Of a stretch of DNA of 14,218 bases, positions 1 through 14,218 are shown piece after piece (the stretch's first letter is position 1; every line of letters begins with the position of its first letter). The DNA lies in assembly GCA_001871125.1 (NCBI GenBank), contig MNXB01000049.1, forward strand, positions 1-14,218, given 5' to 3'. Under the pieces are notes generated by a model. The model was not told the DNA's origin, did no database searches, and saw only the letters and a list, made by a program, of their open reading frames with translations. The position numbers were made by a program, and so were the translations under genes. The DNA comes from Elusimicrobia bacterium CG1_02_37_114. Lineage in GTDB: Bacteria > Elusimicrobiota > Endomicrobiia > CG1-02-37-114.

Positions 1-608
1 CAATATTCCATGAAGATGATGATTTTAAGTATTTTTTGAAGTTGCTAAAAGAGAATAAAGATAAAAGTGATATTAAGATATATCATTACATTTTGATGAA
101 TAACCATGTACACATAATATTAAAAGCAGTAACAGGTAAATCACTAAGTGAAACATTTAAAAGGATAAATATCAGTTATACGCTATATTACCGAAGGAAA
201 TACAAAGGTGTTGGACATTTCTTTCAGGACAGGTTCAAAAGTTTTTTGATACAGGATGGTAAGTATCTACTTGAGTGTGGTAGGTATATTGAAATGAATC
301 CTGTTAAGGCAGGTTTAGTAGCAGAACCCGCCCAATATAAATGGAGTAGTTATAGAGTATATGCAAATGGTGAACATGATAGTATCGTTGACATAAATCC
401 TGAATATGAATCATTAAGTAATGACAAAGAAAAAAGAGAAGTGATATATAAAGAATATGTGAAAGATAGTAATTTAGACAGAAGAAATGAAGGAAGATAT
501 TTCAAGATAGGTGCTTACGGTTCGAAAAATTTTATAGAAATGCTGAATGAAAAAGGATTGAAGTCTGCGTGGTCACATAGCGGTCAACCCAAGAAGAAGT
601 CAGAATAA
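1..608 (+). mobile_element. 5'-truncated HuH/Y1 tyrosine transposase (IS200/IS605 TnpA or RAYT-like, COG1943-type). The reading frame is open to base 3, so the true N-terminus lies upstream of the window.
   Basis: Extending the frame to the window edge gives IFHEDDDFKYFLKLLKENK..., then IKIYHYILMNNHVHIIL (the HuH motif, HVHII), FQDRF, YIEMNPVKAGLV and the C-terminal YKWSSY tyrosine motif. These are typical of Y1 transposases. Stop TAA at 606-608. Confidence 0.75.
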
Positions 609-612
609 GTAT

Positions 613-630
613 TAGAACCGTCCCCATTCT
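613..630 (-). repeat. One copy (reverse complement) of the GC-rich motif AATGGGGACGGTTCT, immediately 3' of the transposase stop.
   Basis: gaaccgtccccattc at 616-630. Its reverse complement matches 5613-5627 over 15/15 bases and 5315-5325 over 11/11. Confidence 0.45.
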
Positions 631-635
631 TTTTT

Positions 636-1604
636 ATGTTGAAAATAAATAATTTATCTGTTGAGTATTATTTGCGCAATAAAACCATTAAGGCTCTACG
701 CAATATTTCATTAGACCTCCGACGTAATGATTCAATGGGAATTGTAGGTGAATCCGGCAGCGGTAAAACTACTCTATCTATGGCAATTCTTAAACTGATT
801 TTACCCTATGAAGGCAGAATTACATCGGGAGAAGTATTGTTTAAAAATAACGGGAGTATTATAAATTTAACCAATCAGACAGAAAGAGAAATGAGGCAGA
901 TAAGAGGTAATAAGATATCCATTGTATTTCAGGACCCTTTTTCTGCACTAAATCCTGTAATTCCCGTTGGCGAACAAATAACTGAAACATTAAAAGCGCA
1001 TAAAATTTCAGGAGACTTAAAAGAGACGGTTTTAAACATTTTGAAAGATGTTCAACTCAATGATAACGAGAGAATTTTCAGGTCATATCCGCATGAGCTC
1101 AGCGGTGGAGAAAGACAGAGAATATGTATAGCTATTTCAGTTGTTACGCACCCGGCTGTACTGATTGCCGATGAACCAACAACCGCACTTGATGTAACAA
1201 CACAAAAGGAGATACTTGACCTTATTTCAAATATATGGAAGAACTCTTCATTATCGCTTATTTTGATAACACATAATATGCACTTAGCTGTGGAACGGAC
1301 GAAGAGAATAACAATAATGTATGCAGGAGAAATAGTTGAGCAATCCGAAACGCAATCTATTATCAAAAGCCCGAAACACCCATATACTGTTGCTTTATTT
1401 AATGCTATACCTGGATTCAGGAAATCAAGGTTGACGGGGATAAAGGGTAATGTGCCTGACCTCTCAAATCTGCCGGAAGGTTGTAAGTTTTATGAAAGAT
1501 GCGAGAAGAGAATGGATGTGTGCAAAAAGGAAGAACCTGAATTGTTGAATATAGAAAATAATCATTTTGTCAAATGTCATCTCTACAGGAGTAATAGTAA
1601 ATAA
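636..1604 (+). CDS. ABC transporter ATP-binding protein of the oligopeptide/dipeptide type (OppD/DppD-like), with the C-terminal Oligo_HPY extension.
   Basis: Walker A GESGSGKTT, Q-loop FQDP, ABC signature LSGGERQR, Walker B LIADEPTTALD, H-loop ITHN. C-terminal PKHPYTVALFNAIP...EGCKFYERC, typical of OppD/DppD. Confidence 0.85.
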   Translation: MLKINNLSVEYYLRNKTIKALRNISLDLRRNDSMGIVGESGSGKTTLSMAILKLILPYEGRITSGEVLFKNNGSIINLTNQTEREMRQIRGNKISIVFQDPFSALNPVIPVGEQITETLKAHKISGDLKETVLNILKDVQLNDNERIFRSYPHELSGGERQRICIAISVVTHPAVLIADEPTTALDVTTQKEILDLISNIWKNSSLSLILITHNMHLAVERTKRITIMYAGEIVEQSETQSIIKSPKHPYTVALFNAIPGFRKSRLTGIKGNVPDLSNLPEGCKFYERCEKRMDVCKKEEPELLNIENNHFVKCHLYRSNSK

Positions 1605-1618
1605 GGTGAGTGGGAATT

Positions 1619-2518
1619 ATGGACAATAAGGAATTTCTTAAAACAGTTGACATTTTCAAAAATTTTTCAGAAACATCTATGCAAAAAATAATATCTGCGG
1701 CTGAACTCGGTAACTATCCTGCCGGTAAAGTAATATTTTTTGAAGGAGATCCCTCCAGTCATCTTTATATAATTGTTACCGGGCAGGTAGAGATAACAAA
1801 AAAAATATCCACTGAATCAGAAAAAATGTTATCTGTTCTTGGAATCAGGTCTATTTTTGGTGAAATGAGTCTGTTTTCTAATGAGCCAAGGACAGCAGGA
1901 GCCAGAACAAAAACATTTATGAATTATTATAAAATCCATCGCGATGTTCTCCTGGGAATATTTGCTACTGACCATAAAGGTGCATCAGAAACATTCAGGT
2001 TATTATTATTGACGACACTTCAAAGATTAGAGGAAACTGACCGTGAGCTTGCAACAGTTTATGAGATAAATCAGTTAATGGTAAAAGGATTGACATTAAA
2101 AGAATTCTGTCGGGCGGTTATTAAACTATTAAACTATTCTGTTCCGAAGGTTGATTCGGGATTAATCTATGTTTTTGATGAAGGTGTACAGGGATATAAC
2201 CTGCTGGGTAATGTTGGAATAGATAATGCCCCGTTGATTCTTCCGGCTATTTCTCCGATAGTGCGGTCGGTAGGGAACAAGATAATTGGCGGTAGGATTG
2301 AATCCACGATAATTGATGACCCCGGAGTTATATATCAGATGATGAAAAACATTTCTCCTGCAGAAACATTGATGGTCCTGCCACTGGCTAAAAAGAATAA
2401 CCTGATAGGGTTTGTCTTATTGTTGAATAAAAAAGAAAGGATATCTCATAGTGAGAGCACGGTAGATTTAATTAACTCCATAGCGGTTCAACTTTCCAGT
2501 GCAATCGAAAGACAGTGA
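1619..2518 (+). CDS. Cyclic-nucleotide-binding (CAP/Crp-type cNMP) domain fused to a GAF-like domain. No recognisable output domain. The ORF track starts at GTG 1610, but ATG 1619 with RBS AAGGTGAG is the more likely start.
   Basis: N-terminal half: IFKNF...YPAGKVIFFEGDPSSHLYIIVTGQVEI...FGEMSLFSNEPRTAGARTKT, matching the cNMP pocket FGE..L.....R.A...A. C-terminal half, LIYVFDEGVQGYNLLGNVG...LMVLPLAKKNNLIGFVLLLNK, is GAF-like. It sits 14 nt after the oppD-like stop and 16 nt before the oppF-like start. Confidence 0.6.
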   Translation: MDNKEFLKTVDIFKNFSETSMQKIISAAELGNYPAGKVIFFEGDPSSHLYIIVTGQVEITKKISTESEKMLSVLGIRSIFGEMSLFSNEPRTAGARTKTFMNYYKIHRDVLLGIFATDHKGASETFRLLLLTTLQRLEETDRELATVYEINQLMVKGLTLKEFCRAVIKLLNYSVPKVDSGLIYVFDEGVQGYNLLGNVGIDNAPLILPAISPIVRSVGNKIIGGRIESTIIDDPGVIYQMMKNISPAETLMVLPLAKKNNLIGFVLLLNKKERISHSESTVDLINSIAVQLSSAIERQ

Positions 2519-2534
2519 GATATAATTTTGTTGA

Positions 2535-3284
2535 ATGTTGAGACCTGACCCCGTACCTATTTTAGAACTTAAGAATGTAACCAAATGTTTTAAAAAGTTT
2601 ATCGCTGTTGAGGATGTTTCATTTAAAGTTTTACAGGGAGAAATACTGGGGCTTATCGGGGAATCCGGCAGCGGTAAAACAACGATAGCAAAACTGATTG
2701 TAGGACTTCACAGACCTGACAGTGGAGAGATAATTATTGATGAATTAGCATCAAAAATACAACTGATATTCCAGGACCCTTATTCTTCTTTGAATCCAAA
2801 ACTTTCAATCGGGACTATAATAGGCGAAGTAATACACAGACGCTGTATGAATGATAATACAAAACTGTCACGAAAACAGATAGTTGAAGAAGCAAAAGAA
2901 TATCTTAATATTGTTGGTTTACCAATCAATATTCTGGACAATTATCCGCATCAGTTTTCCGGCGGACAGAGACAGCGGATAGCAATAGCCCGGGCCCTTG
3001 CCCTTAAACCAGGACTTATTATTGCTGATGAACCGCTGTCACAACTTGATGTCTCAATACAGGCACAGATAATAAATTTGTTTATGGAACTCAAGGAAAA
3101 ATATGGTCTTTCATATGTTTTTATTTCACATGATTTGCTTGTAGTGAACACTCTTTCCGATAGAATACTTATAATACAAAATGGCAGAATAGTTGAAGAA
3201 AATTCACCTGACAGGATTTTTCAAACACAGTCCACTGACTATACCAGAAGACTGGTTACCTCCCTGCCAGGATTTGATTTATAA
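2535..3284 (+). CDS. ABC transporter ATP-binding protein of the oligopeptide/dipeptide type (OppF/DppF-like).
   Basis: Walker A GESGSGKTT, FQDPYSSLNP, signature FSGGQRQR, Walker B IIADEPLSQLD, H-loop ISHDL. Shorter than the upstream ATPase, with no Oligo_HPY tail, which is the OppF-like pattern. Confidence 0.85.
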   Translation: MLRPDPVPILELKNVTKCFKKFIAVEDVSFKVLQGEILGLIGESGSGKTTIAKLIVGLHRPDSGEIIIDELASKIQLIFQDPYSSLNPKLSIGTIIGEVIHRRCMNDNTKLSRKQIVEEAKEYLNIVGLPINILDNYPHQFSGGQRQRIAIARALALKPGLIIADEPLSQLDVSIQAQIINLFMELKEKYGLSYVFISHDLLVVNTLSDRILIIQNGRIVEENSPDRIFQTQSTDYTRRLVTSLPGFDL

Positions 3285-3300
3285 GCGTAAGGAAATTATA

Positions 3301-3385
3301 ATATAAAAGGGTAAACCCTTAATTCCAGGAATTTATATAAAAGGGTAAACCCTTAATTCCAGGAATTTACCCTTTAGGGTTTTAC
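3301..3385. repeat. REP-like structured intergenic repeat, locus 1. It is a perfect 34-bp tandem duplication (3301-3334 = 3335-3368) of atataaaagggtaaacccttaattccaggaattt, followed by a second hairpin module accctttagggtttta.
   Basis: Read directly from the sequence. Each unit carries the hairpin AAGGG-taaa-CCCTT and the palindrome AATTCCaGGAATT. The trailing ACCC-ttta-GGGT is followed by TTTTA. It lies between the oppF-like stop and the cca-like start. Confidence 0.8.
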
Positions 3386-3390
3386 TTAAA

Positions 3391-4806
3391 ATGAATATAA
3401 AAAATATTATCAAGATATTATCTGGAAAAACAAAACCTGGCCAGAAAATATACCTGGTTGGCGGATTCCTGCGGGATGTTTTATTGAAAAGAAAAACCAA
3501 TGACCTGGATTTTGTTGTAAACAAAAATATTCGGGATTTTGTAAATAGCATAGCTTTGAAACTCAAAGGCAAAGTTATAATACTTGATGACCGGAACCGT
3601 ATATACCGCATAATCGTTTCAGGTAGCGACGGGGAAACCTGCAATTTAGATTTTTCACACATGCAGGGAAAAAATATTCAACTGGACTTAGATAGAAGAG
3701 ATTTCACGATAAATGCAATGGCAATGGATATAGAACACAAAGACATTATAGACCCATTCGGTGGTATTAAAGATTTAAATAATAAAATCATACGCAAAGT
3801 GTCGGACAGAATATTTAACGATGACCCGTTGAGGTTGCTGCGTGCATACAGGTTTCAGGCAGAATTAGGGTTTGACATTGAGCAGGATACCAGCAAACTG
3901 ATAAGAAAATATGCAAGGTTTATTAAGAAACCGGCAAAAGAAAGAGTCCGATACGAACTATTGAAGATACTCCAGACCAACGACTCATCAAAAATCGTTG
4001 ATGTCCTTGATAAACAGAAATTACTGGAACCAATCTTTCCTGAAATACTTGTTATGAAAAAAAGTGCCCGCAGGTTTTATTTTCATCCCGAGGGATTATG
4101 GCAGCATTCAAAAGAAAGCCTGGTAAGTCTGGAGATAATATTAAAAAATGTCAAAAAACTTTTCCCTCAATCTTCAGAAAAAATTATCAGGCATATAACG
4201 CCAAGAATAGGGCTAATCAAATTCATTACTTTGTTCCATGATTTAGCAAAACCTAAATCCATAAAAAGAATAAATAACAGAATAAGATTTTTCGGCCATG
4301 AGAGAGAGGGAGCGAAAAAAATCGCCAGGATTATGGGACGGTTAAAATTCAGTAACAAAGAAATATCTATTGCAGAGAAAATTGTAAAAAACCATATGAG
4401 ACCGGGAAATTTACTGCAGGCAAAAATACTTACTGAACGCGCAATATATCGTTTCTTCCGGGATTTGGGTGATGAAACCGTTGATTTGTTATTGCTTTCC
4501 TTTGCTGACAGGCATTCTTATCTAAAAATCAGAGCTACCAAAAAGGAAGTCTCTGACTATAAAAAATTTGCCGGGTTAATGATTGAAAAATTTTTTAAAC
4601 AAAAAGAACTGGAAAAGAGGGAAAAAATTGTCAACGGACATATAATAATGAAGAAATTCGGTCTAAAGCCAGGTCCGATAATTGGCAAATTATTAAAAAT
4701 TGTTGAGGAAAACTATATATTGGGGAAAATAAAAACCACAGAACATGCCTTAGAGTTTATAAAAACTAAATGCAAAAGATTGCTGAGAAATTTACAAAAC
4801 TCTTGA
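3391..4806 (+). CDS. cca: tRNA nucleotidyltransferase / poly(A) polymerase family protein with a C-terminal HD domain (CCA-adding enzyme-like).
   Basis: N-terminal head IYLVGGFLRDVLL (GGxxRD), DLDF, RRDFTINAMAMDI, DDPLRLLRAYRFQAELGF. C-terminal HD region HPEGLWQHS...FHDLAKP...GHE. Confidence 0.7.
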   Translation: MNIKNIIKILSGKTKPGQKIYLVGGFLRDVLLKRKTNDLDFVVNKNIRDFVNSIALKLKGKVIILDDRNRIYRIIVSGSDGETCNLDFSHMQGKNIQLDLDRRDFTINAMAMDIEHKDIIDPFGGIKDLNNKIIRKVSDRIFNDDPLRLLRAYRFQAELGFDIEQDTSKLIRKYARFIKKPAKERVRYELLKILQTNDSSKIVDVLDKQKLLEPIFPEILVMKKSARRFYFHPEGLWQHSKESLVSLEIILKNVKKLFPQSSEKIIRHITPRIGLIKFITLFHDLAKPKSIKRINNRIRFFGHEREGAKKIARIMGRLKFSNKEISIAEKIVKNHMRPGNLLQAKILTERAIYRFFRDLGDETVDLLLLSFADRHSYLKIRATKKEVSDYKKFAGLMIEKFFKQKELEKREKIVNGHIIMKKFGLKPGPIIGKLLKIVEENYILGKIKTTEHALEFIKTKCKRLLRNLQNS

Positions 4807-4831
4807 CAATACAAGTTTTGTCTTGTATAAT
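4803..4831 (+). promoter_or_regulatory. Perfect-consensus sigma70-type promoter TTGACA-17 nt-TATAAT with an inverted repeat TACAAG-n6-CTTGTA in the spacer (candidate operator), upstream of the XRE regulator gene.
   Basis: TTGACA at 4803-4808, a 17-nt spacer, TATAAT at 4826-4831. The palindrome tacaag (4810-4815) / cttgta (4822-4827) overlaps the -10. The -35 overlaps the TGA stop of the cca-like gene. Confidence 0.5.
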
Positions 4832-4873
4832 AATAGTAGGTGAAGGATGTTAAAAAATTATGAGGTGACTGAA

Positions 4874-5200
4874 ATGACAAACATTAGACTAGAAAAAATT
4901 GATTTTCATTTGAAGAAAAAATTGAAAAACAAAGAGTTCAAAAAATACTTTAAACTAGAAAAAGATAAAGTAGAACTGGCACAAAAAATATCTGAACTAA
5001 GGCAAGAGAAAAATTTAAAGCAAGCTGACCTTGCCAAAAGACTACATGTTTCTCAACAGTTTATTTCTCAGATTGAGACTGCTCAAGAAAATAATCTAAC
5101 AATAGATACTTTATTGAAGTTAGCTGAATCATTAGGTAGAAGTGTTGAGATTTCATTTCCTAAAGTATCTAAACAACATAATAGACTTATTGTTGCTTAA
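4874..5200 (+). CDS. XRE-family (Cro/C1-type) helix-turn-helix transcriptional regulator. Antitoxin-like or mobile-element repressor context. An in-frame alternative start exists at 4847.
   Basis: HTH LKQADLAKRLHVSQQFISQIETAQENNLTIDTLLKLAESLG. The RBS GAGGTGA at 4862-4868 lies 5 nt before ATG 4874. Confidence 0.7.
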   Translation: MTNIRLEKIDFHLKKKLKNKEFKKYFKLEKDKVELAQKISELRQEKNLKQADLAKRLHVSQQFISQIETAQENNLTIDTLLKLAESLGRSVEISFPKVSKQHNRLIVA

Positions 5201-5312
5201 GATTTTTTTGATTTTCAAAAAATCTTTTGCTATTATAATACATTACTAATTACGTAAATATTCACTCGCTGATGTCAAGGGTTTGACAAATTACTTTTTG
5301 TTTAATGTGTGA

Positions 5313-5325
5313 ATAATGGGGACGG
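5313..5325 (+). repeat. Partial copy of the AATGGGGACGG motif, overlapping the RBS region of the PIN-like remnant.
   Basis: aatggggacgg at 5315-5325, an 11/11 match to the other two copies. Confidence 0.4.
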
Positions 5326-5339
5326 AGGTAATTAAAACT

Positions 5340-5645
5340 ATGAAAAAACTTAAAATATATCTTGATACTTCTGTGATAAATTTCTTATTTGCTAATGATG
5401 TCCCTGAAGAAAAAGTAATTCCACCGCAAAAGATTGAAGATGCACAGCACATTGCCATTTCAACCTGTAACCAAATAGATATTCTTCTATCATGGAACTT
5501 CAAACATCTGGCTAATATACAGAAACAGATTTATGTTAAAATAGTAAATGAAAAAGAAGGTTATTTTTATCCGTTGATTTTAACAAATCCAATGGAGGTT
5601 ATATATGAGAAAAATGGGGACGGTTCTGATACTTTGGGAAAGTAG
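5340..5645 (+). pseudogene. PIN-domain-like nuclease remnant. The N-terminal strand and the C-terminal half are present but the middle roughly 60 aa appear to be deleted in frame.
   Basis: MKKLKIYLDTSVINFLFAND is a PIN N-terminal D-containing strand. It is joined after about 10 aa to ...EDAQHIAISTCNQIDILLSWNFKHLAN...EGYFYPLILTNPMEVI, which reads like a PIN C-terminus. RBS GGAGGT at 5325-5330, 9 nt before ATG 5340. This is too short for a complete PIN fold. Confidence 0.4.
5611..5628 (+). repeat. Copy of AATGGGGACGGTTCT inside the 3' end of the PIN-like remnant. It is the exact reverse complement of 613-627.
   Basis: aatggggacggttct at 5613-5627 equals the reverse complement of 613-627 (15/15), and 17/18 when extended. 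Confidence 0.45.
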
Positions 5646-5670
5646 TGGATAAATGAAGCCGGGATAAAAA

Positions 5671-6216
5671 ATGGATATGGTTAAATTTGAAGATGTAGCA
5701 AATAAAGTTCTTGAGTTACGGGGAGAAAGAGTTATTCTTGATAGTGATGTCGCCAAACTTTATGGTGTCCAAACAAGGGATATAAATAAGGCAGTTAAAA
5801 ATAATTCGGACAAGTTTCCTGAGGGTTATATTTTTGAACTTAATAAAGTGGAATTTGAGGATTTGCGGTGTAAATTTTCCACCGCAAAATTTGCCAAAAC
5901 CCGGGTTATACCCAAGGCCTTTACTGAAAAAGGGTTATATATGTTGGCAACAATTCTAAAAAGCTCGCAGGCTACGCAGACAACAATAGCGATTATTGAA
6001 ACTTATGCAAAACTTCGGCAACTTACAAGGAATATAAAAGAACTTTCTGTTACCAAGAATAAAGGGACACAAAAATCACTTATGCAAAAAAGTGGGGGTT
6101 TGATAACGGAAATTCTTGACGATGGATTGAAAACATCTGGGAGTGAAACCACGATAGAGATTAACTTTGCCGTATTAAAACTCAAACATACTATTAAAAA
6201 AACAAAAAAGTATTAG
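5671..6216 (+). CDS. ORF6N-domain protein (KilA-N/antirepressor-related DNA-binding family typical of phages and conjugative elements).
   Basis: VILDSDVAKLYGVQTRDINKAVKNNSDKFPEGYIFELNKVEFEDLRCKF...RVIPKAFTEKGLYMLATILKSSQATQTTIAII matches the ORF6N signature LDxDLAxLYGVxTKxLNQAVKRNxxRFPxDFMFxL...P.AFTExGVxMLSxVLxS..A..VNI.I. Confidence 0.7.
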   Translation: MDMVKFEDVANKVLELRGERVILDSDVAKLYGVQTRDINKAVKNNSDKFPEGYIFELNKVEFEDLRCKFSTAKFAKTRVIPKAFTEKGLYMLATILKSSQATQTTIAIIETYAKLRQLTRNIKELSVTKNKGTQKSLMQKSGGLITEILDDGLKTSGSETTIEINFAVLKLKHTIKKTKKY

Positions 6217-6278
6217 AAATGCCATAAGATTGGTGACAGTTCTTAATTAAACGAATTATGAATTTTAGGAGAAAATCT

Positions 6279-6782
6279 ATGACTAAAAAAATTTTATTAT
6301 TGAGTTTACCGGTAATGTTTTTTGGTATGTGCGGTATCGCTCTATGTTTTTTAATGATAGGTGGTGACTGGACATCTGCGTTAACAGAAATAGTTACTTT
6401 CGGTAGCAGGGTCGTTTCTTCTGATGGGAATGTGTCGGTTATACAATCAGTAGGAAGCATCAATCTTGGCGGTGACAGGATTACAGGTGGTGATTACGAG
6501 GTTGTAGGCACTGTGGGTGCCGGGCTGATTACTATGGCTGGTCCTTCAGTAAACTTAGATAGTGTGAAGGTCTATCCCAACCCATATAAACCAGGCACAT
6601 GGACAATTTATGATAACTCTGTTCTTGGTGAAGGAGTTGTTTTTAGCGAGTTGACTGCGAATGCAAAAATAAAGATATTCAATATTGCAGGCGAATTTGT
6701 TGCTGACTTTGAAGAAACAGACAGCGACGGAAAATATCTCTGGGATACGCGAAATTCCAGCGGTGAGAAAATTGCCAGCTGA
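6279..6782 (+). CDS. Small secreted or membrane-anchored protein whose C-terminus resembles a T9SS type-A sorting domain (Por_Secre_tail) or a FlgD-Ig-like domain. It appears to lack the last roughly 15-20 aa of that domain.
   Basis: RBS AGGAGA at 6267-6272, 6 nt before ATG 6279. Hydrophobic N-terminus KKILLLSLPVMFFGMCGIALCFLMIGG. C-terminus KVYPNPYKPGT...AKIKIFNIAGEFVADFEETDSDGKYLWDTRNSSGEKIAS then stop, where CTDs normally continue GVYFY.... Confidence 0.5.
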   Translation: MTKKILLLSLPVMFFGMCGIALCFLMIGGDWTSALTEIVTFGSRVVSSDGNVSVIQSVGSINLGGDRITGGDYEVVGTVGAGLITMAGPSVNLDSVKVYPNPYKPGTWTIYDNSVLGEGVVFSELTANAKIKIFNIAGEFVADFEETDSDGKYLWDTRNSSGEKIAS

Positions 6783-7395
6783 CTCAAAAGGGACAACAAC
6801 TGCATCTTTCTTGAAAATCGGTGTTGGTGCGAGGAATATAGGACTTGGAGAGACAGGGGCAGTAAGTGAAGATGTAAATAGTGTGTACTGGAATCCTGCT
6901 GGATTAGCATCAATAAATGAAGGAGAAATATCACTGATGCATTCTGTCTGGCTGGAGACAATAAACTATGAACATCTGGCCTGCGGATTTCCTACAAAAT
7001 TTGGTAACTTGGGTGGTGCAGTAAACTATCTGTTTATGAGCGAGATGGATAAATATGACAATACCGGTGATAAACAATCGGAAAAAATGTCAGCAACAGA
7101 TATGGCTATAACACTGACATACAGCAGAAATGTTCTAATAAGATATAGATCTACCACAAAAGAACTTGAAGGAATTGCAGGTATAACTGCTGGTGTAGGC
7201 TTTAGATTCAGGGATTATTGTATTGACTATGCATGGACACCTTATGGCCAGTTGGGTGATACACATAGAATGTCATTATCAATGAAGTTCGGTAAAGAGG
7301 AAGAAGTAAAAAAAGAAGAAGTAGAAAAAAGAAGGCAGGAAGAGGAAGCCAGAAGGAAGAGCAAAAAATCGGCGTGTAGAAATCATATTGAATAA
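6685..7395 (+). CDS. PorV/PorQ-like (FadL-fold outer-membrane) protein fragment with a K/E-rich C-terminal tail. It has no signal peptide, and its 5' end overlaps the preceding ORF in a different frame, so it may be a frameshifted or fused pseudogene.
   Basis: ASFLKIGVGARNIGLGETGAVSEDVNSVYWNPAGLA resembles the conserved N-terminal motif of PorV/PorQ/FadL-like proteins (FLKIGVGARA.AMGGAF.AVADDASAIYWNPAGLA). Tail KEEEVKKEEVEKRRQEEEARRKSKK. The only in-frame starts upstream of the motif are TTG/GTG and are not preceded by a leader peptide. Confidence 0.4.
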   Translation: MQANLLLTLKKQTATENISGIREIPAVRKLPADSKGTTTASFLKIGVGARNIGLGETGAVSEDVNSVYWNPAGLASINEGEISLMHSVWLETINYEHLACGFPTKFGNLGGAVNYLFMSEMDKYDNTGDKQSEKMSATDMAITLTYSRNVLIRYRSTTKELEGIAGITAGVGFRFRDYCIDYAWTPYGQLGDTHRMSLSMKFGKEEEVKKEEVEKRRQEEEARRKSKKSACRNHIE

Positions 7396-7460
7396 ATAAA
7401 ATTTCGGATTGCTAAATGATAACTGGGTCCGGGGTTACAGGCAAATCCCGGAGGTTAAAT

Positions 7461-7481
7461 AATGGTCGGGCCGCCATTTTG
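7461..7481 (+). terminator. Weak candidate rho-independent terminator downstream of the PorV-like ORF: hairpin AATGG-tcgggccg-CCATT followed by TTTT.
   Basis: 5-bp stem (7461-7465 / 7474-7478) plus a T-run. It is part of a GC-rich patch, 7423-7476, that is unusual for this AT-rich window. Confidence 0.25.
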
Positions 7482-7541
7482 ATAAAATCAAGATAAGCGG
7501 CTTTTTAATTTTATGAAAAGAAGATAAATGGAGATAAGGAT

Positions 7542-9005
7542 ATGTGGACGAAAGAGAATTTACAGGAAATGCTCAAACAAAAATTAGAAGGATACCAATT
7601 CATGGTTGTTTCAAACAGAGAGCCGTACAGTCACGAATATGAAGGACGTAAAATAAAATGCTTTAAAGCCATAGGCGGTTTGGTTACCGCCCTGGACTCC
7701 GTATTACAATCTACGGGAGGTACCTGGATAGCATATGGTTCAGGTGATGCAGACAAAGACGTTGTTGATAAAAATGATATAGTCAGGATGCCGGTAAATA
7801 ATCCCAGGTATAACCTTAAACGAATATGGTTGACGAAAGAAGAAGAAAATGATTTTTATTATGGTTATTCAAACCAGGCATTGTGGCCGCTCTGTCATAT
7901 TGTATACAGGCAACCTTTATTTAATGTTTCGCATTACAATACATACTTAAACGTAAACAAGAAATTCGCTGCTGCTGTGTTGGACATTGCCGGTAAAGAA
8001 AAATCGTTTGTATGGACACAGGATTATCAGATGTGTTTAGTTGCCAAATTTATAAAAGAAGCCAACCCCGGAATAATTACGGCACTCTTTTGGCACATAC
8101 CATGGCCAAATCCGGAAGTGTTCAGAATATGTCCGCAAAAAATTGAAATCATGGAAGGTTTATTGAGTAATGATTTATTAGGGTTTCATATACATTATCA
8201 TTGCCACAGGTTTCTTGAGGCTTGTGAACAGGAAATTGAAGCGAAAGTACAGTGGGAAGAAATGTCCGTTACCTATAAAGGTCATACTACTTTGGTAAGG
8301 CCGTTTCCAATAAGCATTGATACTCAAAATGTAGCTTCACAGGCAAACTTACATTTTGTAAAAAATGAAATTGACAATTTACCAGACGAAATAGACCCTC
8401 CGTATGAAATCCTTGCGGTTGGCGTGGATAGAATTGATTATACCAAGGGGATAGTAGAAAAACTATATGCAATTGACAGGTTTCTTGAAAAATACCCGCA
8501 ATATCAGGGTAGATTTGTCTTTTTTCAACAGGGAGCATTGAGCAGGTTACATATCAAATATTATAAGGAATACATTGATAGAATACAGGCCCTTACTGAA
8601 GAGATAAACTGGAAATACCGTTGCGGTAAATGGTATCCGATTGTACTTAACAATAGAAGAACAGAATATTACAGACAACTTGCATTATACAGAGCAGCGG
8701 ATATATGTATTGTGAGTTCATTACACGATGGTATGAATCTTGTATCAAAAGAATTTGTTGCTTCAAACACGGATTTTAAAGGTATGTTAATACTATCAAA
8801 ATTTACCGGTGCATCAAGAGAACTTAAAGAAGCGATTTTAATCAACCCTTATGATATAGAGAATTTTGCTGATTCTATAAAGGAAGCAATAGAATTGTCT
8901 CAGGATGAGAAAACAAGCCGTGTAAAGAAAATGCAGGAAACAATTGAAGAAAACAACGTTTACAAATGGGCAGGCAAATTTATTGAAAATCTGGCTAAAT
9001 TATAA
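7542..9005 (+). CDS. otsA: Alpha,alpha-trehalose-phosphate synthase (GT20 family, OtsA-like). A related GT20 sugar-phosphate synthase such as glucosylglycerol-P synthase cannot be excluded.
   Basis: GT20-like motifs: VVSNREPY, GGLVTAL, YYGYSNQALWPLCH, FWHIPWP, LLGFHIHYH, GVDRIDYTKG, SSLHDGMNLVSKEF, ILINPYD. RBS GGAG 8 nt upstream. Confidence 0.7.
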   Translation: MWTKENLQEMLKQKLEGYQFMVVSNREPYSHEYEGRKIKCFKAIGGLVTALDSVLQSTGGTWIAYGSGDADKDVVDKNDIVRMPVNNPRYNLKRIWLTKEEENDFYYGYSNQALWPLCHIVYRQPLFNVSHYNTYLNVNKKFAAAVLDIAGKEKSFVWTQDYQMCLVAKFIKEANPGIITALFWHIPWPNPEVFRICPQKIEIMEGLLSNDLLGFHIHYHCHRFLEACEQEIEAKVQWEEMSVTYKGHTTLVRPFPISIDTQNVASQANLHFVKNEIDNLPDEIDPPYEILAVGVDRIDYTKGIVEKLYAIDRFLEKYPQYQGRFVFFQQGALSRLHIKYYKEYIDRIQALTEEINWKYRCGKWYPIVLNNRRTEYYRQLALYRAADICIVSSLHDGMNLVSKEFVASNTDFKGMLILSKFTGASRELKEAILINPYDIENFADSIKEAIELSQDEKTSRVKKMQETIEENNVYKWAGKFIENLAKL

Positions 9006-9019
9006 TTAAATTTTAATTT

Positions 9020-9793
9020 ATGAATTATCTGTATAATAACAAGACTATATTGAGAAAGATTAAAAAAAGTAATAAGATTTTACTTTTTCTTGATTATGAC
9101 GGTACGCTTACGCCCATTGTTTCAAAACCCGAAGCAGCAGTTTTATCGCACAGAACAAAAAAAATACTTAAAATATTATCAAATGATTGCAGGTTTATAT
9201 TGGTCGTCATAACAGGACGTTCTGTTTCCGACATAAAAAAACTTGTTGGGATAAACAGGATTATATATATTGGCAACCATGGGTTCGAAATAAAATTACC
9301 CGGCAAGGATATACTCTCTCCGGGAGACACAAAGAAACTGATGAAAGAAGTCAGTGCAGATATTAAATGTAGAATAAAAAACGTAATGGGAGCGTACCTT
9401 GAGGACAAAGGATTGACCCTGAGTTTACACTGGCGTAATGTAGATAAAGCGGATAATACTAATTTGAGAAAAATAACTAGAGGAATTAAGGAAGATTATT
9501 CCTCCAGATTAAGGTTTATTAAAGGCAAAAAAGTTTTGAATCTCGTCCCTCTGTCCGGGATAGATAAAGGGAAAATAGTGAATGCACTTTTAACACAGAC
9601 TGTTTCAACCCGGAATAACGTCTCTATCGTTTATATAGGCGACGATGTAACCGACGAATATGCTTTCAGAGAATTGAAAGGGAAAGGCATAACAATACGT
9701 GTAGGCAGGAATATTAAATCAAGTGCCAGGTATTATTTAAATAATACCGGCGAGGTCTATAAATTCTTATATTTCCTAAAGAGAATGTATTAA
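9020..9793 (+). CDS. otsB: Trehalose-6-phosphate phosphatase (HAD-IIB, OtsB-like).
   Basis: HAD motif I FLDYDGTLTP, motif III K...NLVPLSGIDKG, motif IV IYIGDDVTDE. Immediately downstream of the GT20 synthase. Confidence 0.7.
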   Translation: MNYLYNNKTILRKIKKSNKILLFLDYDGTLTPIVSKPEAAVLSHRTKKILKILSNDCRFILVVITGRSVSDIKKLVGINRIIYIGNHGFEIKLPGKDILSPGDTKKLMKEVSADIKCRIKNVMGAYLEDKGLTLSLHWRNVDKADNTNLRKITRGIKEDYSSRLRFIKGKKVLNLVPLSGIDKGKIVNALLTQTVSTRNNVSIVYIGDDVTDEYAFRELKGKGITIRVGRNIKSSARYYLNNTGEVYKFLYFLKRMY

Positions 9794-9794
9794 T

Positions 9795-10256
9795 ATGAAA
9801 ACTAAGGATATTATGACTCAATCTGTAACCACAATTACACGGGAAACAACTCTGAACAAAATACTTGATATTTTTAAAAATTTTCATACTTTTCCAATAG
9901 TACCTGTAATTGACGAAAATAAAAAACTTATCGGAGTTATTTCTCTAAAAAATATAGTAGAGATATTTGAACCTACAAAAAGTACCCTGATAAAATCAGC
10001 GCCATTCATTGACCAGAAGGAAGTAGATTTATTTGAATTAGAAATTACTGATGAAATGAAGCATTTATGTATAGCTGAAGATATGATGGAAAGTAAATTC
10101 GTTACATTGAATGAAGAAATGGATTTGAAAGAAGCATATAATCTTATGAGATTACATAATTTAGAGGAGATACTTGTAGTGAATAAAGAAAATATATTAG
10201 TAGGAAGGGTAGGTGTTTTTGATATAGTCCGTACAGTGTTTGTAACTAAAAAATAG
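9795..10256 (+). CDS. Tandem CBS-domain (Bateman) protein. Its start codon is 1 nt after the otsB stop.
   Basis: Two CBS-like segments: DIMTQSVTTITRETTLNKILDIF...IVPVIDENKKLIGVISLKNI and FVTLNEEMDLKEAYNLMRLHNLEEILVVNKENILVGRVGVFDIV. Confidence 0.7.
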   Translation: MKTKDIMTQSVTTITRETTLNKILDIFKNFHTFPIVPVIDENKKLIGVISLKNIVEIFEPTKSTLIKSAPFIDQKEVDLFELEITDEMKHLCIAEDMMESKFVTLNEEMDLKEAYNLMRLHNLEEILVVNKENILVGRVGVFDIVRTVFVTKK

Positions 10257-10266
10257 CAGATAAAAT

Positions 10267-11472
10267 ATGAATACCTTATTAACTTTAGGCGTAATTTTTC
10301 TATCGGCACTTGTACTTGCTAAGGTAATAGATAAAATAAAGCTTCCTTCTGTGACAGCATATTTATTATTAGGACTTTTAATTGGTTATTCCTTTTTTAA
10401 CATTATTCCTAATGAACTTATAAAAGCTACTGATTTAATTTCAAATATAGCATTAGGATTTATTGCATTTTCTATAGGCAGAAACTTCTCCTTCGATACT
10501 TTTAAACGGATAGGTAAGTCAATAATGTGGATTTCTATATTAGAAGCATCGGGAGCATGGTTAACTGTTACAATTTTATTCTTTTTGTTATTAAAACAGC
10601 CTATTTATATATCTCTCTTGTTTGGAGCTATATCTGCTGCAACAGCACCTGCGGCAACGGTTATGGTCGTGAGAGAATATAAGGCAAGAGGAAATTTTAC
10701 CAATGTACTTTTAGGAGTAGTTGCAATTGATGATGCATGGTGTTTAATAATATTTTCTATTTCGCTTGCTATTGCTAAGGCTTTGAATATCCCCGGAGTA
10801 AATCCTCATTTGATAAGAGTAATATTTAGCTCAATAAAAGAAATATTTGGTGCGCTTATACTTGGCGGAATCGTTGCTTTCATTATGTCTGTTTTAATAA
10901 AACACATACGAACACAGACAGAATTTCTTATATATACATTAGGATTTGTGTTGCTTAACACCGGGTTGGCTATATTGCTGCATTTTTCAGTTCTGCTCAG
11001 TAACATGTTTCTTGGAACGGTGATAATAAATATCAACAGAACAAGTGATAAATTTTTTGATACTTTAAGCAGTATTGATTCACCAATATATCTTTTATTC
11101 TTTGTCCTTGCAGGTGCAAATTTCGAGCTATCAGCATTAAAAAACATTGGTTTATTAGGGATATGTTATATAATCTTCCGTGTATCCGGTAAAGCATTAG
11201 GCGGATTCTTAGGCGGACAGATTTCCCAAGCACCTGAGAATGTAAAAAAATATATCGGATTAGGTTTGATTCCGCAGGCTGGTGTAGCACTTGGTTGTGC
11301 ATTGATAGCAAAAGCGAATTTTCCTTCTGTTGGTAGATTTGTATTCAATACAGTAGTTGCTACAACAATTATATATGAAATTATAGGTCCAATATGTACA
11401 AAACTTGCTCTACAAAAAGCGGGAGATATACCAACTTTTGTCAGTAAACCCATTGAACAGAAAAACATCTAA
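10267..11472 (+). CDS. Cation:proton antiporter (CPA2 / Na_H_Exchanger family, KefB/NapA-like membrane domain). It has no fused RCK/TrkA regulatory domain.
   Basis: Polytopic membrane protein, about 12 hydrophobic segments. LLLGLLIGYS, ALGFIAFSIGRNFSF, VAIDDAWCLIIFSISLA, GLIPQAGVALGCALIA are CPA-like signatures. Confidence 0.7.
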   Translation: MNTLLTLGVIFLSALVLAKVIDKIKLPSVTAYLLLGLLIGYSFFNIIPNELIKATDLISNIALGFIAFSIGRNFSFDTFKRIGKSIMWISILEASGAWLTVTILFFLLLKQPIYISLLFGAISAATAPAATVMVVREYKARGNFTNVLLGVVAIDDAWCLIIFSISLAIAKALNIPGVNPHLIRVIFSSIKEIFGALILGGIVAFIMSVLIKHIRTQTEFLIYTLGFVLLNTGLAILLHFSVLLSNMFLGTVIININRTSDKFFDTLSSIDSPIYLLFFVLAGANFELSALKNIGLLGICYIIFRVSGKALGGFLGGQISQAPENVKKYIGLGLIPQAGVALGCALIAKANFPSVGRFVFNTVVATTIIYEIIGPICTKLALQKAGDIPTFVSKPIEQKNI

Positions 11473-11490
11473 TGCTCGGGAGGCGACTAT

Positions 11491-12543
11491 ATGTTAAAAG
11501 ATATTTTAAGCACCTCTTTCTTAGATAATCGTATTTCAGACTACATACTTTTTATACTAATTTTTATCGCAGGTATATTAGTAATTAGAATACTTAAAAA
11601 CATCATTTTAAGTCGTCTTAAAAAATGGGCAAGTAAAACCACCACTACATTGGATGATTTTTTAATTCATGCATGTGAAAAAATATTGATTCCTTTATTG
11701 TATTTTGGTATTTTTTACCTGTCCCTGCAAAACCTGAACGTAAATCCCTCATTAATTAAAGTTATACAGGTACTGGGTATCGGTTTATTGACTTTCTTCG
11801 GTATTCGTTTTGCAGTATCAATGCTCAGTTATATAATTGACTCATATTTATCAAAGAAAGAAGCAGATACCACCAAAACACAAGGTATAAAGGTAATACT
11901 TCCTGTACTAAAAGTAGTTATATGGGGTATAGGCATTACTTTTTTATTAGATAATTTAGGATTTAAAATTTCAACTGTAATTGCGGGTTTAGGTATCGGC
12001 GGTGTAGCAGTCGCTTTAGCAGCTCAGGCAATTTTAGGCGACTTATTCAGTTATTTTGCCATACTTTTTGATAGACCATTTGAAATTGGTGATTTTATCA
12101 TTATTGGAGATTGCCTGGGAGTTGTGGAACATATTGGAATTAAAACTACGCGTATCCGCAGTCTCGGCGGAGAACAGTTAGTATTTTCCAATAGCGACCT
12201 TACTAATTCCCGTGTCCGCAACTATAAAAGGATGGAAAGACGCCGTGTAGTTTTTAAACTCGGCGTCACCTATCAAACCACTCTTCAGCAATTAAAAGAA
12301 ATACCGATAATAATTGCCAATATTATAAAAAATACTAAAAACGTAGAGTTTGACCGGGTACATTTTTTCTCGTACGGTGATTTTAGTCTTATTTTTGAAA
12401 TAGTTTATTATGTTCTCAGTAGTGATTATAACAAATATATGGATGTCCAGCAGGAAATTAATTTTGCAATCAAGGAAGGGTTTGAAAAACAAAAAATAGA
12501 GTTCGCTTATCCGACACAAACACTGTATTTGACAAAAACATAA
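11491..12543 (+). CDS. Small-conductance mechanosensitive channel (MscS family).
   Basis: Pore helix and beta-domain LGIGGVAVALAAQAILGDLFSYFAILFDRPFEIGDFIIIGDCLGVVEHIGIKTTRIRSLGGEQLVFSNSDLTNSRVRNYK, preceded by three TM helices. RBS GGGAGG. Confidence 0.8.
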   Translation: MLKDILSTSFLDNRISDYILFILIFIAGILVIRILKNIILSRLKKWASKTTTTLDDFLIHACEKILIPLLYFGIFYLSLQNLNVNPSLIKVIQVLGIGLLTFFGIRFAVSMLSYIIDSYLSKKEADTTKTQGIKVILPVLKVVIWGIGITFLLDNLGFKISTVIAGLGIGGVAVALAAQAILGDLFSYFAILFDRPFEIGDFIIIGDCLGVVEHIGIKTTRIRSLGGEQLVFSNSDLTNSRVRNYKRMERRRVVFKLGVTYQTTLQQLKEIPIIIANIIKNTKNVEFDRVHFFSYGDFSLIFEIVYYVLSSDYNKYMDVQQEINFAIKEGFEKQKIEFAYPTQTLYLTKT

Positions 12544-12558
12544 ATTAGTAGTTACTTA

Positions 12559-12626
12559 GGAATTCACCCTTTAGGGTTTTATCCGCAGGATTATCTAATT
12601 TATAAAAGGCTAAAGCCTTAATTCCG
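12559..12626. repeat. REP-like structured repeat, locus 2. It is a diverged copy of the 3301-3385 element with the two hairpin modules in swapped order, a circular permutation, flanked by GGAATT...AATTCC.
   Basis: ggaattcaccctttagggtttta at 12559-12581 versus ggaatttaccctttagggtttta at 3362-3384. tataaaaggctaaagccttaattcc at 12601-12625 versus tataaaagggtaaacccttaattcc at 3302-3326. The stem pair G:C changes to C:G (AAGGG/CCCTT to AAGGC/GCCTT), which preserves the hairpin. Confidence 0.75.
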
Positions 12627-12763
12627 TCAAAAAAGAAATTCCTATACTATTAAATTAAAGCTTTTGGCTCAAGATTGGGGGTGATGAAAAAAACTAAAAG
12701 AGATTGTTAATTCGGAAAAACATTTCCGAGAGTAGTCTAATAATTACAAAAGGAGGCAGAAAA

Positions 12764-13633
12764 ATGTACGACGATGATTTAACTAAGGGTATAAATAAGG
12801 CAAAAGAGAAAATGCAGTCCGTAATGAAAAAAGGGCCGCTGATACCCGTGCTTATTATTGCGGGTATTCTGATATTTTTCATGTATTTAGCGCCCTGGGT
12901 CCAGATTGGGCCTGGTGAAAGAGGAATTGTCCTTAATTTTGGCGCTGTTCAAAAGAACGTATTTGGAGAAGGGCTGCATTTCAGGATACCTGTGGTGCAG
13001 AAGATTGCCGTAATGGATGTCAAGGTTCAGAAATCCGTAACAAATGCCGCGGCTGCATCGTCTGACCTTCAGGAAGTGACCTCGGATGTTGCACTTAATT
13101 ATCACATAGTGCCGGACAAGGCAAATCTTGTCTATCAGAATATAGGTGTACAATTTAAGGAACGAATTATAGACCCTGCGGTGCAGGAGGTGGTAAAAGC
13201 TGTGACAGCCAGGTATACAGCAGAAGAGCTTATCACAAAGAGGCCGGCAGTAAGCGAGGCAATGAGAGCAAACCTTGCTGAAAGACTTTTAAAGCATAAT
13301 ATAGAGGTTGACGCATTTTCTATCGTCGGGTTCAGCTTCTCCAAGGCATTTACGGAAGCGATTGAGTCAAAACAGACAGCGGAACAGCTTGCGCTAAAAG
13401 CAAAGAGAGACCTGGAGAGGATAAAGATAGAGGCAACACAGACAATTACAGCAGCCAGGGCAGAGGCCGAATCCCTGAGACTCCAGAAAGCAAATATTTC
13501 AACCGACCTTATAGAACTCAGGAAAATAGAGGCAAACCTTAAGGCTATAGACAAATGGAACGGGATACTGCCTCAGGTTACGGGTAGCGGTGCAATACCA
13601 TTTATAGGAGTAGGAGACATACAGAAAAAATAA
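12764..13633 (+). CDS. SPFH/band-7 (prohibitin/stomatin-like) membrane protein.
   Basis: RBS AGGAGG at 12751-12756, 7 nt before ATG 12764. N-terminal TM LIPVLIIAGILIFFMYL, then GERGIVLNFGAVQKNVFGEGLHFRIPVVQKIAVMDVKVQ (band-7 core) and a long A/E/R-rich coiled-coil tail. Confidence 0.75.
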   Translation: MYDDDLTKGINKAKEKMQSVMKKGPLIPVLIIAGILIFFMYLAPWVQIGPGERGIVLNFGAVQKNVFGEGLHFRIPVVQKIAVMDVKVQKSVTNAAAASSDLQEVTSDVALNYHIVPDKANLVYQNIGVQFKERIIDPAVQEVVKAVTARYTAEELITKRPAVSEAMRANLAERLLKHNIEVDAFSIVGFSFSKAFTEAIESKQTAEQLALKAKRDLERIKIEATQTITAARAEAESLRLQKANISTDLIELRKIEANLKAIDKWNGILPQVTGSGAIPFIGVGDIQKK

Positions 13634-13659
13634 TCCAATAATCTTGTCTGGAGTAGAAT

Positions 13660-14218
13660 ATGTGTAAGACAAAAATTATTTGTACCATAGGTCCTGCATC
13701 AGAAAAACCTGCTACGATAGAAGGAATGATAAAATCAGGCATGGATATTGCACGGCTGAATTTTTCACACGGCACTCACGAACAGCACGAAAAACGTATG
13801 GTTATTATAAGAAAAGCATCAAATAAATTGAATAAAAGCATAGGGATTATGCAGGATTTACAGGGTCCGAAGATTCGCATCGGTAAATTCAAACCAGGTA
13901 TAAAAAGCATAGTCTTACAACCCGGGGAGAAATTTATTTTAACTACTGAAAATTACCCGGGAGGGGATAGAAACAGAGTCAATTTAGATTATAAAAGATT
14001 GCACAGGTACCTTGCTAAAAACGATAGAATATTTCTTGATGATGGTAAAATAGAACTATTAGTAAAGAAGGTTGTTAATAGAAATATTGAATCCGAAGTG
14101 ATTGTCGGCGGTGAATTATCGGAACGTAAAGGGGTCTCTTTACCGGACAAGACTATACCGCTGCCTGTTATTACTCGGCAGGATATAAATGATTTGGATT
14201 TCGGCATGAAACTGGGAG
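13660..14218 (+). CDS. pyk: Pyruvate kinase, N-terminal part (3'-truncated by the window end).
   Basis: KIICTIGPAS, DIARLNFSHGTHEQH, IMQDLQGPKIRIG, SERKGVSLPD. No stop codon before the window end. RBS GGAG about 5 nt upstream of ATG 13660. Confidence 0.8.
   Translation, partial: MCKTKIICTIGPASEKPATIEGMIKSGMDIARLNFSHGTHEQHEKRMVIIRKASNKLNKSIGIMQDLQGPKIRIGKFKPGIKSIVLQPGEKFILTTENYPGGDRNRVNLDYKRLHRYLAKNDRIFLDDGKIELLVKKVVNRNIESEVIVGGELSERKGVSLPDKTIPLPVITRQDINDLDFGMKLG

Follow-up and report, generated by a model that had tools for sequence, protein, structure and literature searches.

Contig MNXB01000049.1 of Elusimicrobia bacterium CG1_02_37_114, analyzed over positions 1-14,218 (the window), carries a gene for a predicted soluble sensor protein between oppD-like and oppF-like genes, which encode the two ATPases of a peptide-type ATP-binding cassette (ABC) importer. 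The three genes share one strand and lie directly 3′ of a RAYT-type Y1 transposase gene. An earlier reading of the window by sequence inspection (the first-pass annotation) had reported the oppD-sensor-oppF order on one strand with gaps of 14 and 16 nt and a transposase immediately upstream. Open reading frame coordinates bear out both points, with gaps at 1605-1618 (14 nt) and 2519-2534 (16 nt) and a RAYT-like Y1_Tnp gene that ends at 608. The genes and the predicted parts of the sensor are as follows.

636-1604, plus strand: oppD-like ABC ATPase gene, 322 amino acids (Pfam ABC_tran 7.5e-29, oligo_HPY 7.5e-20)
1619-2518, plus strand: sensor gene, 299 amino acids, with a cyclic nucleotide monophosphate (cNMP)-binding domain, a long helix, and a GAF domain, and without an output domain (profile searches, alignment, AlphaFold2 (AF2) model)
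1712-1969, plus strand: cNMP-binding beta-barrel of the sensor, residues 32-117
1856-1897, plus strand: phosphate-binding cassette FGEMSLFSNEPRTA of the sensor, residues 80-93
1973-2083, plus strand: connecting helix of the sensor, 37 residues (119-155), family motif RELATVYE (DSSP on the AF2 model, alignment conservation)
2087-2515, plus strand: GAF domain of the sensor, residues 157-299
2535-3284, plus strand: oppF-like ABC ATPase gene, 249 amino acids (Pfam ABC_tran 6e-31)

The sensor reading frame spans 1610-2518 from a GTG start, and an ATG start at 1619 gives the 299-residue protein. The ATG was taken as the start because it yields an N-terminus, MDNKEFLK, that lines up with those of all homologues. 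The sensor gene matches its neighbors in GC content and is predicted to be co-transcribed with oppD and oppF. Between oppD and oppF, the operon strand is free of terminator-like sites in a scan whose sole match of this kind lies on the minus strand, 3′ of oppF. Promoter-like sites in the scan showed no enrichment over shuffled sequence.

OppD and OppF are ordinary importer-type ATPases as judged from their sequences. OppD matches the NCBIfam DppD/OppD models at 2e-82 and 2e-77, OppF matches the DppF/OppF/NikE models at 1e-67 to 3e-60, and both translations retain intact Walker A, signature, Walker B, and H-loop motifs. The oligo_HPY profile, suggested for checking by the first-pass annotation, matches OppD (7.5e-20) and does not match OppF (Pfam). 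A short OppF of this kind is a normal variant by sequence comparison, as the nearest canonical locus likewise encodes a short OppF. The oligo_HPY region of OppD (window 1480-1590, residues ~283-316) contains four cysteines, CKFYERCEKRMDVCKK...VKCH, whose spacing matches an iron-sulfur cluster motif that some OppD/DppD proteins are reported to carry. This entire cysteine-bearing region is missing from OppF.

NCBI attributes the OppD protein to Elusimicrobia bacterium CG1_02_37_114; many contigs encode it, and the longer of them place it in a complete operon. In L003, L004, and L006, one strand carries SBP_bac_5 (556 amino acids), a Y1_Tnp gene (307), oppB (321), oppC (279), a second Y1_Tnp gene (226), oppD, the sensor gene, oppF, and a CCA-adding enzyme gene. 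The two permeases in these contigs have the domains BPD_transp_1_N plus BPD_transp_1 and OppC_N plus BPD_transp_1. L005 and L011 confirm the same order from the cut end of oppA onward. The Opp/Dpp-type importer set of a family-5 substrate-binding protein, two permeases, and two ATPases is thus complete in one operon, with its first three genes outside the window. Three of the four junctions of this oppA-B-C-D-F operon hold an inserted gene, and the D/F adjacency that is usual for Opp/Dpp-type importers is broken by the 900-nt sensor gene.

The first-pass annotation had noted the lack of permease and substrate-binding genes and had offered, as one of two options, that an orphan OppD/OppF pair had been repurposed outside transport under the control of a cNMP/GAF module. 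The lack holds within the window, because the contig ends there, and does not hold for the organism, in which these genes lie immediately upstream in longer contigs. Contig L012 (2086-2890) provides a second point for an orphan pair: in it, RAYT-oppD directly adjoins an unrelated NYN_YacP gene, so a form lacking oppABC may exist. The RAYT gene at this junction is a hybrid whose left end derives from one RAYT copy and whose remainder derives from the other. The junction is either a real 9-kb deletion that removed oppABC and the preceding genes or an assembly chimera across the repeat. Against the orphan pair, oppB and oppC stand directly upstream on the same strand in five contigs (L003-L006, L011), complete oppA is present in three (L003, L004, L006), and both ATPases are of the importer type. 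The orphan option therefore fell, and a repurposed pair is very improbable.

The sensor protein and its family

The sensor is predicted to be a soluble protein with a cyclic-nucleotide-binding (CNB) domain, an intact cyclic-nucleotide pocket, a GAF domain, and no output domain. Its cNMP_binding match (PF00027) scores 71.2 bits against a cut-off of 27.5 (E 7.2e-20) and covers residues 35-120 counted from GTG 1610, which are residues 32-117 from ATG 1619. The phosphate-binding cassette FGEMSLFSNEPRTA fits the canonical G-E ... R-[ST]-A pattern; 34 relatives show no variation at G81 and R91 and at least 90% conservation at E82 and A93. The domain has the eight-stranded beta-barrel of the fold. 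The AF2 model, built on the family alignment (predicted local distance difference test score 93.4, predicted template modeling score 0.79), consists of the beta-barrel, a 37-residue helix (119-155), and an alpha/beta domain. By analogy with the C-helix of CRP, the connecting helix is probably a dimerization and signaling helix.

The C-terminal domain is a GAF domain by homology through family members and by predicted fold. GAF_3 matches 26 of the 34 family members (best E-value 5.3e-11), GAF_2 matches 19 (best E-value 1.7e-16), and a profile of the C-terminal half matches the solved GAF domains of 4mcw (7e-17), PDE5 (1e-14), and PtsP (1e-11). The sensor ends at AIERQ, directly after the last GAF helix, and no DNA-binding, enzymatic, or other output domain was found in Pfam, NCBIfam, and further domain searches. 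The first-pass annotation had read the middle protein as a cNMP-binding domain plus a GAF-like domain without DNA-binding or enzymatic output. The cNMP-binding domain and the missing output are confirmed by the profile searches. The GAF-like domain is supported through family members and fold, whereas the window sequence by itself scores 23 bits with GAF_3, below the cut-off of 27, and over its last 53 residues only.

Because it has neither an enzymatic nor a DNA-binding output domain, the sensor must act through protein contacts. The best full-chain Foldseek matches are CRP-family proteins, which overlap the CNB part. Unlike CRP/FNR-type proteins such as MtbCRP, GlxR, and Thermus CAP, the sensor has a GAF domain in the place of the helix-turn-helix domain and is therefore not a CRP/FNR transcription factor. 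A CRP-type transcription factor was also rejected at the level of profiles, with no helix-turn-helix family match and a CRP NCBIfam score of 42 bits against a cut-off of 266, confined to the CNB part. Pycsar effectors join a cNMP-binding domain to a TIR or membrane domain; unlike them, the sensor has no effector domain, its locus has no cyclase partner, and its neighbors are transporter genes rather than defense genes. A Pycsar-like or ABC-ATPase defense system was rejected, as PADLOC returned just generic domain-level matches.

A search of 1.84 billion cluster representatives yielded ~35 full-length relatives of 300-335 amino acids, with E-values from 1e-78 to 1e-20. The relatives found in genomes and metagenomes are almost all from Elusimicrobiota, with one in a Planctomycetota metagenome-assembled genome (MAG; L013), and none was found on viral contigs. 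Outside the species, ~25 full-length family loci were gathered from species-representative genomes, metagenomes, and look-ups of individual relatives, and were searched by tblastn with the window OppD and OppF and with the neighbor of the family gene at L001. This neighbor carries the NCBI name "type IV pili twitching motility protein PilT". A sensor-family gene lies directly 3′ of pilT in 16 distinct loci, with gaps of 4-213 nt and PilT proteins 66-87% identical to that of L001; two lineages (L015/L035 and L021) are exceptions to the linkage. The pair, from Elusimicrobiota and from one Planctomycetota MAG, is found in L001, L013-L014, L016-L020, L022, L024, L028-L034, and L036-L037; in L029, for example, pilT occupies 3911-4996 and the sensor gene 5001-5966.

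The pilT-linked proteins are homologous to the window sensor over their full length, at 29-44% identity, and share its two-domain architecture. One of them is encoded in the same genome. The MAG that holds the window sensor (OIO75034.1) also holds PilT OIO73906.1 and the pilT-linked protein OIO73905.1 (L029), which is 43% identical to the window sensor. The pilT-sensor pair occurs in two further MAGs of the species, one of which (PIV accessions) lists the window sensor too. As judged from sequence and from metagenomic binning in at least two MAGs, the window sensor is a second, diverged paralogue of the pilT-linked copy.

The window sensor gene follows oppD rather than pilT. In the pilT-linked proteins examined, the GAF domain is followed by a conserved C-terminal tail, ENI..EE..R.RL.R...W, which the window sensor lacks. 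In a neighbor-joining tree without support values, the window sensor falls in a separate subclade with other tail-less, non-pilT members, and a further profile search added one member, P0330. These members have the following neighbors.

P0134 (tail-less): short contig with an unidentifiable neighbor
P0139 (tail-less): follows a peptidase-like gene
P0135 (tail-less; L106, 697-2133): fused C-terminal receiver domain; follows a stand-alone receiver gene
P0330 (tail-less): overlap with a TetR gene; HAMP-cyclase at a distance of 6 kb

No ABC ATPase was found near these four members. The fusion of the CNB-GAF module to a receiver domain in P0135 indicates that phosphorelay signaling can incorporate this module. 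By sequence comparison, the window sensor belongs to an offshoot of the family that lost the C-terminal tail and left pilT. A recent duplication of the pilT-linked copy of the same genome is unsupported, given 43% identity and the grouping of the window sensor with tail-less proteins of other organisms.

The window sensor might still act on type IV pilus retraction through PilT, in which case its placement in opp would merely tie its expression to peptide availability. The 16 loci directly behind pilT and the PilT encoded in the same MAG speak for such a role. The tailed paralogue OIO73905.1 already present in the genome makes it less likely, and the low identity of the two copies (43%), the missing tail, and the grouping with non-pilT members also count against it. 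A continued role at PilT is improbable.

For the family at large, the conserved pairing of pilT with a CNB-GAF gene suggests cyclic-nucleotide control of pilus retraction. No published description of a CNB-GAF gene next to pilT was found in the literature searched. The pair thus appears to be undescribed, and it is a more general lead than the placement in opp.

Insertion of the sensor gene into the operon

P0027, the nearest OppD from beyond the species (54% identity), is encoded in a canonical oppC-oppD-oppF locus (L107) in which oppD and oppF overlap. The OppF of L107 is 50% identical to the window OppF. Other top OppD matches are fusions of two ATPases, and each matches twice, which inflates its score. 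Since the nearest outside relative has the canonical order with overlapping D and F genes, the sensor gene was inserted into an ordinary D-F pair.

The D-sensor-F order occurs in more than 14 independent assemblies of the window species, at 99-100% identity; the species is met repeatedly in public metagenomes from groundwater, of which there are many. An assembly artefact was rejected, because over 14 contigs, drawn from ENA, JGI, NCBI, and Logan assemblies, agree on this order. A survey of related genomes, proposed by the first-pass annotation, thus found the order repeated, although confined to this species: no Opp ATPase was found by tblastn within 5-6 kb of sensor relatives in the ~25 full-length family loci outside it. 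The placement of the sensor in opp is a lineage-specific insertion in one lineage and is not to be taken as a system.

Population variants of the sensor differ from the window copy mostly by synonymous changes. Synonymous and non-synonymous differences number 3 and 0 in the commonest variant and 7 and 4 in the most divergent one, a pattern that is consistent with a working gene, albeit in small numbers. In the short contig L027 (483-1381), a 1-nt indel splits the sensor gene into products of 82 and 230 amino acids; it is either a sequencing error or a rare disrupted allele.

The transposase gene upstream of oppD belongs to a mobile unit with defined ends, of which the window contains the following parts.

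1-608, plus strand: RAYT-like Y1 (IS200-type) transposase gene, of which the window holds the 3′ part (Y1_Tnp 9.3e-10)
611-626, no strand assigned: right inverted end of the RAYT unit, AGAACCGTCCCCATT (alignment of two RAYT copies; motif at 614-625, minus strand)

The full RAYT gene lies between oppC and oppD (L003, 9293-9973) and encodes 226 amino acids. The transposase scores 39 bits with Y1_Tnp against a cut-off of 23, and 63 bits with the NCBIfam model REP_Tyr_transpos against a cut-off of 80. At least two copies of the unit are present in the genome (L003, 60-860 and 9232-10032), and they are 91% identical. Alignment of the two copies defines unit ends that are perfect inverted repeats of 12-15 nt, AATGGGGACGGTTCT on the left and AGAACCGTCCCCATT on the right. 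The right end stops ~10 nt before the oppD start codon. RAYT units occupy very tight gaps (6-27 nt) within operons and are oriented like them. The 307-residue protein encoded between oppA and oppB is a third Y1_Tnp transposase.

In a motif search of the window, GGGGACGGTTCT, the end motif of the RAYT unit, was confined to 614-625 and 5616-5627, with a degenerate copy at 6232, and no copy lay beside the sensor gene. Because the motif is absent there, the sensor insertion is not traceable to a RAYT element, and insertion by the neighboring transposase is unsupported, as the defined RAYT ends do not flank the sensor gene. Uniqueness to this contig and descent from the nearby transposase insertion had been named by the first-pass annotation as grounds for doubt; the arrangement is indeed unique to the species, and it does not trace to the transposase. 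Recent foreign origin of the sensor is likewise unsupported: its GC content is that of its neighbors, no relatives were found on viral contigs, and its relatives are almost all from Elusimicrobiota.

Elsewhere in the window, an ORF6N-domain gene at 5671-6216 has a solo exact copy of GGGGACGGTTCT just before it, at 5616-5627, and one with 2 mismatches just after it, at 6232-6243, each on the plus strand. These copies may be repetitive extragenic palindrome (REP)-like elements that bracket the gene.

Proposed gating of OppD and OppF by the sensor

The favored explanation, at a probability of roughly 40%, is that the sensor docks on the OppD/OppF dimer in a ligand-dependent manner. In this reading, the diverged paralogue of the pilT-linked family that was inserted between oppD and oppF of a complete operon encodes a product that would dock on the nucleotide-binding dimer. 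The cAMP- or cGMP-bound state of the sensor would permit or block ATP hydrolysis, so that peptide uptake would be set post-translationally by the cyclic-nucleotide level of the cell. Its action would resemble the clamping of MalK by EIIA-Glc. We infer the identity of the ligand, the dimerization of the sensor, and OppDF as its target. The evidence specific to gating is the operon position in one species, which makes it a possible reading.

Gating is favored because the gene splits a subunit pair that normally overlaps and yet is retained, because mainstream relatives also pair with a motor ATPase, PilT, and because there are precedents for transporter control of this kind. Soluble signal proteins that bind the ATPases of ABC importers include EIIA-Glc with MalK and PII with Urt/Nrt, and regulation of SbtA by SbtB and fusion of CNB domains to major facilitator superfamily (MFS) transporters provide further precedents (PMC10710835).

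Like EIIA-Glc and PII, the sensor is a small soluble signaling protein without enzymatic output that could set importer activity via the nucleotide-binding subunits. Unlike the sensor, EIIA-Glc and PII have other folds (phosphotransferase system (PTS) EIIA and PII), sense phosphorylation state or 2-oxoglutarate/ATP, and are not encoded between two ATPase genes; their binding is established, while that of the sensor is proposed here. SbtB, a PII-like adenine-nucleotide sensor, is similar in being a nucleotide-sensing regulator encoded in the operon of its transporter, and it locks SbtA when ligand-bound. SbtB differs from the sensor in having a PII fold rather than a CNB-GAF architecture, and its target is the bicarbonate transporter SbtA, a secondary transporter and not an ABC ATPase. 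No published account of a CNB-GAF gene inside an opp operon was found in the literature searched, in agreement with the first-pass annotation, which had not recognized the arrangement as a described system.

Several observations weigh against gating and favor a passenger gene, which is ranked almost equally likely. A lineage-specific rearrangement would have placed the sensor gene in the opp operon, where it would use the transcription of the operon and act on another partner, or on none that is specific to transport, so that its position would be meaningless. Two other junctions of the same operon carry selfish RAYT insertions whose spacing, 25-27 nt, is just as tight; therefore, junction insertions are tolerated here without functional meaning. 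The D-sensor-F order was not found outside the species, either in the four other subclade members or in 18 distinct loci of the tailed clade, and the nearest outside relative of the operon has the canonical D-F order. The subclade relatives occupy four different, unrelated neighborhoods, and those with recognizable contexts adjoin a TetR gene, carry a fused receiver domain, or follow a peptidase-like gene, with no consistent ABC partner. The GC content that the sensor gene shares with its neighbors fits an intragenomic move.

Three points count against a passenger. Insertion between usually overlapping subunit genes risks their stoichiometry, yet the sensor gene is fixed and intact across many samples. 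Mobile-element ends do not flank it. Its product has no output domain and needs a protein partner, for which the closest candidates are its co-translated neighbors.

Gating of OppDF by the sensor would add cyclic nucleotides to a short list of signals that act directly on ABC importers at the protein level. Known direct protein-level signals on ABC importers are PTS state, PII proteins, and c-di-AMP. The sensor would add to them a simple two-domain module that is perhaps reusable. A function on Opp would make it a new variant of transporter control by a soluble signal protein, and otherwise it would be an ordinary lineage-specific insertion.

A broader and unlikely extension of gating is that this family of CNB-GAF proteins governs motor ATPases under cyclic-nucleotide control, with tailed members acting on PilT and the tail-less window copy re-targeted to OppD/OppF. 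The window would then hold the first peptide ABC importer gated by cAMP or cGMP via a dedicated subunit encoded between its ATPase genes. Should there be no gating, an uncharacterized conserved pair of pilT and a CNB-GAF gene in Elusimicrobiota is still defined, and the two paralogues of a single genome are natural controls for each other on the question of pilus retraction.

Other features of the window

The spacer between oppF and the CCA-adding enzyme gene contains a perfect tandem duplication.

3301-3369, no strand assigned: perfect tandem duplication (34 bp) in the spacer 3′ of oppF, with a small palindrome GGGTAAACCC (Tandem Repeats Finder)

The duplicated unit is ATATAAAAGGGTAAACCCTTAATTCCAGGAATTT, in 2.0 copies with 100% match. 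It is kept at this site in all species contigs that cover it (13 loci) and was not found at any other site of the fetched loci. The duplication probably marks the end of the operon.

Farther downstream, at 7542-12543, lies a cluster that has the look of an osmotic-stress locus and is unrelated to the sensor. Its genes encode trehalose-6-phosphate synthase and phosphatase, a CBS-domain protein, a Na+/H+ exchanger, and an MscS-type channel.

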